Origin: a virus
Taxonomy: Duplodnaviria; Heunggongvirae; Uroviricota; Caudoviricetes
Direction: 5' to 3' (one strand)
IMG/VR virus record: IMGVR_UViG_2627854098_000006
DNA: 20,045 nt
Shown here piece after piece: positions 6,549-8,412 of this stretch (position 1 is the first letter of the stretch; every line of letters begins with the position of its first letter). The position numbers and the translations under genes were made by a program. Below the pieces are notes generated by a model. It searched no databases. It had not been told where the DNA came from and saw only the letters and a program-made list of their open reading frames with translations.

Positions 6549-6589
6549 GACAAAAACTGACAAATAAAAGCCCATAAAAATGAGCTTTT
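6549..6589 (-). terminator. Putative intrinsic terminator after the membrane-protein gene
   Basis: On the minus transcript: AAGCUC-AUUUUUAU-GGGCUU stem-loop overlapping the TAA stop, followed by UUAUUUGUCAGUUUUUG. Confidence 0.4.
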
Positions 6590-7187
6590 ATTCCTCCTTA
6601 TTATTTTTAGCGTTATCTTGTTTGTTTCGTAAGGTCATAAAAGTATTATACCAACTAGAAACACGAAATATAGCAAAAACGGCAGCTAACGCAGAGAATA
6701 CTGAGTAAATAAATATAAAGTATGCAAAGAAGCTGAATGTTAACAGTACATACCTGTAAGCAACACCTAAATAATAATACATAAAGGCGTTATTTATGAG
6801 AATGCTACTATAGGCCTTGGTGACCAAGGCCGTTATTATAGTTAACAACTGCAATAATATAAAATGAACAAAGGTTGCATTCACAGACATATAAGGGGAA
6901 TATTCTACCTCTCCATTTTCACTTTCTTCATCTCCAGTTATTATTTTTTTGAAGGCCTCATCTCCAATAGCAATCCACATAGCAAAACCACCCAGTGAAA
7001 AACCCAAAAGGTTCGGCATTAACGACAGAATATCATTCCACCACCCCTGATGAGACCAAGATGGATAAAGAATCACTGTCATAAAAAAAGCACACCAAAA
7101 ATAGCGACTTTTAAATACAGCCCCAGCGCCACCATAGATCTTCCAGTATCTAGCCATTGCACTGGTTGATTCTTTTACTTTACTCAT
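6588..7187 (-). CDS. Multi-pass membrane protein, unknown family (candidate effector of a two-gene cargo module)
   Basis: 199-aa ORF; at least four hydrophobic helices (YFWCAFFMTVILYPSW, LSLMPNLLGFSLGGFAMWIAIG, FVHFILLQLLTIITALV, LLTFSFFAYFIFIYSVFSALAAVFAIF); ATG at 7185-7187 overlaps the TAA of the upstream gene by 1 nt (TAATG); AT-rich. Confidence 0.7.
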   Translation of the reverse strand: MSKVKESTSAMARYWKIYGGAGAVFKSRYFWCAFFMTVILYPSWSHQGWWNDILSLMPNLLGFSLGGFAMWIAIGDEAFKKIITGDEESENGEVEYSPYMSVNATFVHFILLQLLTIITALVTKAYSSILINNAFMYYYLGVAYRYVLLTFSFFAYFIFIYSVFSALAAVFAIFRVSSWYNTFMTLRNKQDNAKNNKEE

Positions 7188-8080
7188 TACTTTCTCAGAA
7201 GCCTCTTAAACTCATCTGCTAAAGATTTTGCTCTTAATAACAATAGCTCAGTAACTGATGTTACGTCAGAATCATATGATTCAACCCTTTGAAGTGGTAA
7301 ATCGCTTGAGGCATGAACCTCAACTAATCCCGCCTCATTAATCCTACGTATGCTAACTTCGCCATTTCTCGAAGCAATAAGAGCATCCTGCTTTAACTCA
7401 CTATCAGGTTTAATTTCCTGACCACGCTCAGATTTATATGTTTTATCTTCTTCAATAACGCCAATACGTTTGAAACGCTTTTGCATAATACTTTCTGCAG
7501 AAGCGAGATCATCTGGGTTAGGACGTCGAGTAACCATATTTATACACGTAATGCCTTTTAAAGAAAGCATACGTTCTACGTTATCTGGCTCGGTTAATAT
7601 TGTAACATTAATCTTCCCAAACTTCTCTATAATTCTCTCATGAGAAAATATTCCATTCAGAAAATTTTCTATTTGTTTTGATGTAAGATGCCGACCTTTG
7701 TCCTGCATCTCATAAACTAAAAGATGGCTGGCAGGTAGAAAAACAAAAGAGAATCGAGCCACATTTGGTTTTAAATTCTCAGGTATACTTATCCTTTCCT
7801 TTTGCTCATCTGAGGCAATGTCTTTCTTTACAATATCGAACCAATCTCCATCAACATCAATATCTGTATACTTTAGAATTTCCCCTTCAAAAGGTTCACT
7901 AACTACCTGATCTTTCCTGTAAGGATAAAAGTGTGACAAAGTCGCGAAAGAGTCCCCCCTCAAATTAACATTTCTCGCGTTTTTTCTTGCCATTCTGAAC
8001 AATTCTACATATTTTTCTGGCGAGTGGGGATGCATTGTTATATTCACCGCCCCATAAGTTAATTTTTTTGGTCTTGCCAT
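7187..8080 (-). CDS. Hypothetical soluble protein, 297 aa, unknown family (first gene of two-gene cargo module)
   Basis: ATG at 8078-8080 with AAGGAA upstream; charged, non-repetitive sequence with no motif I recognise; translationally coupled to the membrane protein gene; about 330 bp AT-rich upstream region. Confidence 0.7.
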   Translation of the reverse strand: MARPKKLTYGAVNITMHPHSPEKYVELFRMARKNARNVNLRGDSFATLSHFYPYRKDQVVSEPFEGEILKYTDIDVDGDWFDIVKKDIASDEQKERISIPENLKPNVARFSFVFLPASHLLVYEMQDKGRHLTSKQIENFLNGIFSHERIIEKFGKINVTILTEPDNVERMLSLKGITCINMVTRRPNPDDLASAESIMQKRFKRIGVIEEDKTYKSERGQEIKPDSELKQDALIASRNGEVSIRRINEAGLVEVHASSDLPLQRVESYDSDVTSVTELLLLRAKSLADEFKRLLRK

Positions 8081-8412
8081 TTTATCAGTGTTTCCTTATT
8101 GAGTTAAAAAGCAATATATACATGAAAAACATAAAGAAAACCATGTCTTAACACACACCACTTAATAACCAAAAGGAATAAAAAACGATAGCGTTATTCA
8201 ATAACAGTACAGAATGCTCTCCCCACCATGCCAACCTATTTCGTAGTACAGCTCTCATACAAGTGAATGGCATACAAAAAAGTTACCCCGAACAGGCCGT
8301 CTCAGTAAAAATGCTCCTTAAATCAACATCCAAATTAATGCCACCTGCAACAAAAAACCTTACCCTTAGGCTTAATGTTTGGCTTGGCTGTTGACTTACC
8401 GTAACGCTCCGC

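Follow-up and report, generated by a model that had tools for sequence, protein, structure and literature searches.

What does a pair of AT-rich genes at the tip of an integrated Escherichia coli island do for the element that carries it? The pair lies in a stretch of 20,045 nucleotides (hereafter the window) that is recorded as a tailed virus of the Caudoviricetes (IMG/VR record IMGVR_UViG_2627854098_000006) and is 100% identical to the chromosome of the poultry-pathogenic strain E. coli APEC IMT5155. The upstream gene (gene A) encodes a soluble protein and the downstream gene (gene B) a membrane protein. A first-pass annotation, made from the letters of the window, had proposed them as a candidate undescribed defence module. 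The reading preferred here, with a probability of about 0.6, is that of a two-gene Rex-type abortive-infection or exclusion module, carried as exchangeable cargo by a satellite-like island integrated at thrW. It is preferred because of the predicted fold of protein A, the predicted four-transmembrane topology of protein B, the obligate pairing of the two genes and their cargo context. The parts of the cassette are as follows.

7187-8080, minus strand: gene A, encoding a 297-aa soluble DUF4747 protein with a predicted RexA/RdgC-like two-domain fold; proposed sensor or activator.
6588-7187, minus strand: gene B, encoding a 199-aa inner-membrane protein with four transmembrane helices, predicted N-in/C-in; proposed effector.
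7185-7189, minus strand: TAATG stop/start overlap (1 nt) of genes A and B, read directly in the sequence; translational coupling.
6550-6593, minus strand: intrinsic-terminator-like hairpin overlapping the gene B stop codon and followed by a U-rich tail.
8081-8201, minus strand: leader travelling with the cassette (27% GC, guanine plus cytosine); putative own promoter.
6467-8201: mobile cassette, its limits set by the match (87% nucleotide identity) to the copy carried by P4-like satellites (blastn against loci L023, L011 and L013).

Both open reading frames (ORFs) are intact on the minus strand; RefSeq names their products 'DUF4747 family protein' (WP_001601654.1, gene A) and 'hypothetical protein' (WP_016262943.1, gene B). 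The 1-nt TAATG overlap already read in the first pass is present, and tight coupling recurs in distant loci, the A/B junctions of homologous loci ranging from a 47-nt overlap to an 8-nt gap. The GC content is, as had been stated, below that of the rest of the element (0.369 for gene A and 0.357 for gene B vs 0.479 for the island backbone, 8413-20045). The hairpin that had been placed after gene B was also recovered by a terminator scan (6593-6562, minus strand), with a 14-bp stem, a U-rich tail and an RNA minimum free energy of -19.4 kcal/mol (z = -5.7; 0 of 200 shuffles equally stable). The AT-rich promoter region claimed at 8081-8412 was not confirmed: a sigma-70 consensus scan gave 7 sites vs 7.8 expected, a chance level that leaves the promoter without statistical support, and the whole region upstream of gene A is only moderately AT-rich (GC 0.377). 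The 120 bp that move with the cassette (8081-8201) have a GC content of 0.273; alignment with the P4-borne copy shows a conserved TATATAT box (8120-8113) and Shine-Dalgarno sequence (AAGGA, 8097-8093) in them, and the homology of the leader stops at 8201. Repeats found in 5700-8700 are short matches at chance level, none of them flanking the cassette, and no Rfam RNA family is found in the whole window.

By sequence, protein A is a canonical full-length member of the Pfam family DUF4747 (PF15931): the match reaches E 9.5e-98 and 327 bits (cut-off 27) and covers the model from end to end (1-257 of 257). The protein also falls in phrog_10040, which supplies no functional name. DUF4747 is its sole Pfam match, the RdgC Pfam family included among those giving none; no NCBIfam family and no genuine PADLOC match was found, in line with the earlier remark that neither protein carries an assignable motif; no catalytic motif family was detected. 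A phmmer search of PDB sequences returned merely a chance match to D-Ala-D-Ala ligase (E 1.4). The relatives of protein A (69 cluster representatives, from Enterobacterales, Aeromonas, Shewanella and metagenomes) all carry DUF4747.

Two of the checks named in the first-pass annotation, searches with PADLOC and with Foldseek, were carried out, and the second of them gives the link to Rex. An AlphaFold2 model of protein A (37 homologues; pLDDT 91.6, the predicted local distance difference test; pTM 0.87, the predicted template-modelling score) has lambda RexA as its top Foldseek match in the PDB (8TWQ; E 4.1e-7, probability 1.0) and RdgC as its second (4e-5), with no other match below 0.05. The same ranking, lambda RexA first and RdgC next, was obtained in two independent structure searches. 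The model consists of a beta-rich part (residues 5-124), an alpha/beta part (134-239), further strands (240-269) and a helix (276-296). In the published RexA structure, residues 1-139 and 248-279 form a split globular domain and residues 143-234 an inserted alpha/beta dimerisation domain, the C-terminal part being a helix; its homology to RdgC was unexpected (PMC11077077). The order of elements in the model matches this layout, both domains of the two-domain fold being present; the global TM-score (template-modelling score) is just about 0.3, which fits a differing inter-domain angle. At the level of the model, protein A is shown to have the RexA/RdgC fold: the globular domain is split, an alpha/beta domain is inserted, and the C terminus is a long helix.

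Protein B matches phrog_20580 (function unassigned; E 1e-35) and no Pfam, NCBIfam or PADLOC family. Its AlphaFold2 model (pLDDT 84) has helices at residues 28-44, 49-74, 98-131 and 142-198. Four transmembrane helices are given by its hydropathy; the N and C termini are rich in K and R, and the central loop (75-100) is acidic with conserved edges. The topology is predicted to be N-in/C-in, as is predicted for RexB and for gp31 and gp43, the membrane partners in the Rex-like pairs of actinobacteriophages. An alignment of 37 sequences has 31 invariant columns, including Y14-W15, Y18-G19-G20, the GFSLGG motif, G75-D76, H108, Q113 and W179. The polar invariants D76, H108 and Q113 lie in or beside transmembrane helices, and R175 is near-invariant. 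An exhaustive profile search places at least 1,151 clusters at 50% identity in the family (E<=1e-3), and 386 at E<=1e-30; judged from these sequences, it is a large and highly conserved family without annotation. A few members carry additional soluble parts. In P0322 this is an unassigned N-terminal domain of 230 aa, in which a P-loop-like GSGVSKT motif occurs; in P0261 the C terminus is extended by a FR47/GNAT-like part (E 0.0013, under the Pfam cut-off). These soluble extensions suggest that the membrane module may also be combined with other partners. No fusion to DUF4747 is found among the top 150 representatives of the gene B family.

Gene B is translationally coupled to gene A, and the two were found together in every related locus that could be examined. 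Starting from gene A, a B-family gene lies directly 3' on the same strand in all 16 loci that retain downstream DNA (L004-L009, L011-L015, L017-L020 and L023; several are duplicates, and the window itself is additional). Starting from homologues of gene B, a DUF4747 gene lies directly 5' in 5/5 loci (Klebsiella, Vibrio parahaemolyticus, Thalassotalea). The pairing persists down to identities of 28% (A) and 30% (B). Mean identity is 42% for B vs 36% for A, and B is the higher of the two in 91% of the pairwise comparisons, which are non-independent. A conserved effector beside a fast-evolving sensor is the usual pattern, and the greater conservation of B corresponds to it. In one Klebsiella quasipneumoniae locus (L024, 5095-6001) the DUF4747 gene is broken into pieces of 151 and 127 aa and the membrane gene is intact, which looks like a natural inactivation of the presumed sensor with the presumed effector kept.

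A soluble gene placed first, a small membrane protein placed second and a coupled stop/start resemble the operons of antitoxins and toxins, and the neighbouring slot in other strains holds a GhoT/OrtT membrane toxin. The pair could on these grounds be an addiction or toxin-antitoxin-like stabilisation module, in which B would be a membrane toxin, A its neutraliser, the island would be retained and any phage phenotype would be incidental. This is quite unlikely: if A were an essential antitoxin, the split of A beside an intact B in the Klebsiella strain would be lethal, unless B is silent there, and A is large, with a DNA-binding-type fold, unlike typical antitoxins. Toxin-antitoxin and abortive-infection functions can, besides, coexist.

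The Rex-type reading also draws on the places where the cassette is found. In E. coli NCTC10973 (L023), a bona fide P4-like satellite integrated at ssrA has an 87%-identical copy between its int and psu genes, with 93% amino-acid identity for protein A. The int-psu interval is the P4 defence hotspot described earlier (Rousset et al. 2022). The protein A of the P4-borne copy (WP_023196287) is listed as 'DUF4747 + hypothetical' in the P4-hotspot table of Rousset et al. (bioRxiv 10.1101/2021.01.21.427644), and the DUF4747 pair is not among the systems that they cloned and validated. The pair adjoins a prophage integrase in Vibrio and a DNA methylase and a large DEAD helicase in Thalassotalea. It occurs in prophage and satellite predictions (IMG/VR) and is absent from cultured phage records; a tblastn search with protein A gave no genuine match in 50,697 sequenced phage genomes.

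In Shewanella dokdonensis a HTH_3 gene overlaps the start of gene A, and the HTH_3-A-B set lies inside a P2-like prophage, a layout that resembles cI-rexA-rexB of lambda. Such an operon with a HTH_3 regulator, together with the second rank of RdgC among the structural matches of protein A, would suit a pair that regulates the life cycle of its own element. Protein A would then be a non-specific DNA-binding dimer of RdgC/RexA type that biases a repressor/antirepressor switch or recombination, in parallel with RexA acting on the CI-Cro switch of lambda, and B would modulate or localise A. That role is unlikely, since the cassette travels whole among backbones that are unrelated and have different regulatory circuits (a P4-like satellite, the thrW island, a small Klebsiella island, a Vibrio prophage and a Thalassotalea island). 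The window copy has a terminator and an AT-rich leader of its own and lies at the extreme distal end of its island, a long way from the regulatory genes. A regulator acting on DNA needs no strict co-inheritance with a highly conserved membrane protein.

The element that carries the window copy is integrated at tRNA-Thr (thrW) and adjoins proA, and the cassette is its last cargo before attR. The island and the contents of the equivalent slot (window about 5905-8348) in other E. coli loci (L021, L022, L029, L030 and L031) are as follows.

8349-20045, minus strand: conserved backbone of the integrative satellite-like island (RefSeq, Pfam).
5888-5903: attR, the distal end of the island, a repeat of the tRNA-Thr 3' end (TGGTG-CGATAATAGGA).
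Alternative slot cargo: Orc1/Cdc6-family AAA protein with a weak match to the PADLOC candidate PDC-S59 (3.6e-7).
Alternative slot cargo: 532-aa hypothetical protein.
Alternative slot cargo: SieB, with GH15 and GhoT/OrtT genes beyond.
Alternative slot cargo: 662-aa protein annotated as RNA-binding-domain-containing.

The content of the slot differs between elements that are otherwise conserved and includes a known exclusion gene, SieB; the slot is an uncharted cargo hotspot of the P4-related island. Of 5,426 complete E. coli genomes, 170 contain the backbone stretch 8349-9420; just 12 genomes hold at least 80% of the pair-containing query (window 6400-8600). Since the cassette occupies variable cargo slots of satellites and prophages, a defence or exclusion role is supported, and the soluble sensor and membrane effector that the first-pass annotation had supposed gain support from the RexA-like fold, the obligate pairing and these slots.

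The presence of SieB in the same slot elsewhere also raises superinfection exclusion at the envelope, in which B, with A as a cofactor, would block the entry of phage DNA without killing of the cell, in the manner of Sie or Imm. It is the least probable of the explanations weighed, and a very remote one: blockers of this type are generally single small membrane proteins that need no cytoplasmic partner of RexA fold, and the RexA-like fold of A points to intracellular sensing.

Whether the island is a P4 satellite, a class that the first pass had cited for its defence hotspots, has a divided answer. It is P4-related, with a P4-type integrase, an Icd-like gene and a D5/DUF5906 primase; canonical P4 identity is ruled out, psu, sid and delta being absent. 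The backbone genes encode the P4-type integrase, AntA, the Icd-like protein, the D5_N/DUF5906/Pox_D5 primase, a ProQ-like protein, PerC, a HTH_17 protein and a 59-aa ORF product. About 130 nt of the int/tRNA-Thr junction, with the first 17 nt or so of the tRNA 3' end included, recur as a direct repeat at 5775-5903 (and at 25700-25830 in L001). The repeat marks where the 14-kb island ends (attR) and an older tandem island starts. The latter contains a remnant of an integrase Arm domain (5395-5733), a MarR gene (4436-4960), a truncated vat (774-4310) and IS66.

How a Rex-type module of this composition might act can be pictured by analogy with lambda RexAB and the Sbash and CarolAnn pairs. The pair would be inert in the uninfected cell. 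When a sensitive phage infects, A would be activated, probably as a dimer, by a phage product or a protein-DNA intermediate, and would engage B at its conserved central cytoplasmic loop (residues 75-100). B would then dissipate the membrane potential, ATP would fall and the infection would abort, so that the clonal population and the island would be protected.

Several results weigh against a Rex-type module. Protein A has no match to the RexA family (PF15969) at E<=1, with a BLASTP E of 0.43 and a hhalign probability of 0.4%. The DUF4747 profile (37 sequences) aligned to a CarolAnn gp44 profile (21 sequences) gives a hhalign probability of 0.13% (E 0.45), and aligned to the single CarolAnn gp44 a non-significant result. 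Protein B has no Pfam match to RexB (PF15968; hhalign probability 0.2%), its profile gives a probability of 0.05% against gp43, and its model has no Foldseek match in BFVD at E<=1e-3. As all sequence and profile links fail, the connection to Rex is one of structure and architecture only. PADLOC 2.0, whose systems include Kiwi, PD-T4/T7/lambda and the PDC candidates, has no model for the pair and returned a single, spurious match (GajB, E 0.012 over 49 residues), and for DUF4747 pairs of Gram-negative bacteria the literature searched holds no published phenotype. Moderate protection against P1vir by a 'distant analog of RexAB' was mentioned by Rousset et al. in their 2021 preprint (bioRxiv 10.1101/2021.01.21.427644), but in the preprint's table the P1vir-protective pair is Pfam RexA plus a hypothetical protein, not DUF4747, and the statement is missing from the published paper. 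The mechanism of lambda Rex is itself still debated (PMC11077077).

Other features of the window and of related loci were recorded beside the cassette. Between it and attR lies an unannotated 115-aa ORF with a GTG start (6116-6463, minus strand; no Pfam, PHROG or PADLOC match), which is probably spurious or a remnant; the block 6325-6429 has 80% identity to sequence that adjoins the cassette in the P4-like copies. The 178-aa backbone protein encoded at 8886-9422 (minus strand) has an N-terminal HTH_17 domain and weak PHROG matches to small-terminase and Cox-like excisionase families, and these features make it a candidate factor for packaging redirection or excision of the island.

The start of an uninterrupted ORF of 512 codons (15155-16693, minus strand) lies within the AntA-family gene, 8 nt from its end. 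Only the last 73 codons of the ORF are annotated in RefSeq (Icd-like), which places two plus-strand genes opposite it (YlcI/YnfO family, 15708-16013; hypothetical protein, 16071-16271). The ORF has no Pfam match, and its PHROG matches cover residues 441-512 or so, the N-terminal 440 aa being unexplained; it may be either a mis-annotation or a novel fused protein. The region directly downstream of the pair in Thalassotalea (L028, 6702-12615) encodes a DNA methylase, proteins of 608 aa (weak LmuB match, 2.4e-4) and 337 aa, and a protein of more than 1,800 aa that carries a DEAD-box helicase domain; this locus looks like a defence island.

What the Rex-type reading offers for this locus is an explanation, as a Rex-like pair, of low-GC cargo at the tip of a thrW island in an APEC strain, beside the vat pathogenicity region. 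Among gammaproteobacterial mobile elements the DUF4747 branch is common; E. coli, Klebsiella, Salmonella, Serratia and Vibrio are native hosts, and the size is small (1.7 kb). Rex is the oldest known phage-exclusion system, and the pair, if of this type, would be a tractable E. coli-native model for its still-unresolved mechanism. If B is a reusable membrane-disrupting module for different sensors, its characterisation would define a new effector class. Demonstrated defence, a trigger and a role of the membrane partner would extend Rex-type immunity beyond lambda and the actinophages, and would improve the annotation of defence systems, as PADLOC 2.0 misses the pair.

Among known systems, the pair is not a categorically new one and is best read as another member of the known Rex-like kind. 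DUF4747 has been linked to lambda RexA, Sbash gp30 and CarolAnn gp44 since 2019 (PMC6426596, PMC6426606, PMC7542560), and a 'DUF4747/CarolAnn prophage system' is placed among the known or predicted immune operons downstream of capK-capS (EMBO J 2026; PMC13373217). Of the initial proposal of a candidate undescribed defence module, the defence or exclusion part is thus supported and 'undescribed' is not, protein A being a canonical DUF4747 member with this literature behind it. The newer aspect, as far as sequence comparison goes, is the membrane partner, which belongs to a large, conserved and unannotated family with no detectable link to RexB. That the DUF4747/four-transmembrane pair forms a distinct and widespread gammaproteobacterial lineage of Rex type, with an effector evolutionarily unrelated to RexB, is put forward tentatively.

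Two other resemblances were set aside. The chromosomal protein RdgC (PDB 2OWL) is of housekeeping type and has no membrane partner, whereas gene A is always paired and on mobile elements; a housekeeping function of RdgC type is ruled out by the obligate membrane partner and the mobile-element context. Kiwi (KwaAB) likewise consists of two genes, one of them for a membrane protein, but differs in gene order and folds and is ruled out, no match to KwaA or KwaB being found. The first-pass annotation had separated the pair from Kiwi by its soluble-then-membrane order: the separation stands, and this order is that of rexA-rexB.

The cargo of the P4 psu-int hotspot includes a cassette of the same type, the window copy differing in its location on a P4-related island without psu, sid and delta. 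Compared with lambda RexAB (PF15969/PF15968; RexA PDB 8TWQ), sequence similarity is undetectable for both proteins and the Pfam families differ. Protein B (199 aa) has its own invariant motifs vs the 144 aa of RexB. The window pair has its own leader and terminator and no adjacent repressor, whereas RexAB is co-transcribed with the prophage repressor. The lambda system is further characterised by a RexA that dimerises, binds DNA and contacts RexB, and by exclusion (of T4 rII) with depolarisation upon infection. As in RexAB, a small inner-membrane partner with four transmembrane helices is encoded directly downstream of the soluble gene, and like RexB and gp43 this partner has positively charged N and C termini.

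The pairs Sbash gp30/31, CarolAnn gp44/43 and Butters gp30/31 protect lysogens from specific phages (Hatfull and Ware laboratories; PMC6426596, PMC6426606, PMC7542560), and those of Sbash and CarolAnn do so via a phage-encoded trigger (PMC6426596, PMC6426606). In the same reports, weak HHpred matches to DUF4747 are given for the soluble proteins and for RexA, and a Rex-like mechanism is proposed in which the sensor activates a channel with four transmembrane helices (PMC6426596, PMC6426606, PMC7542560). The hosts of these phages are Actinobacteria vs Gammaproteobacteria for the window pair, the sensors have about 370 aa vs 297 aa for protein A, and CarolAnn gp44 has no Pfam match at E<=10, unlike protein A. 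The actinobacteriophage membrane partners are unrelated in sequence to protein B. What the window pair shares with all three, in architecture and proposed logic, is the combination of a cytoplasmic sensor, for which a specific phage protein is the proposed activator, with an effector of four transmembrane helices. Sbash, moreover, uses an own promoter and not that of the repressor, as the window pair would with its putative promoter.

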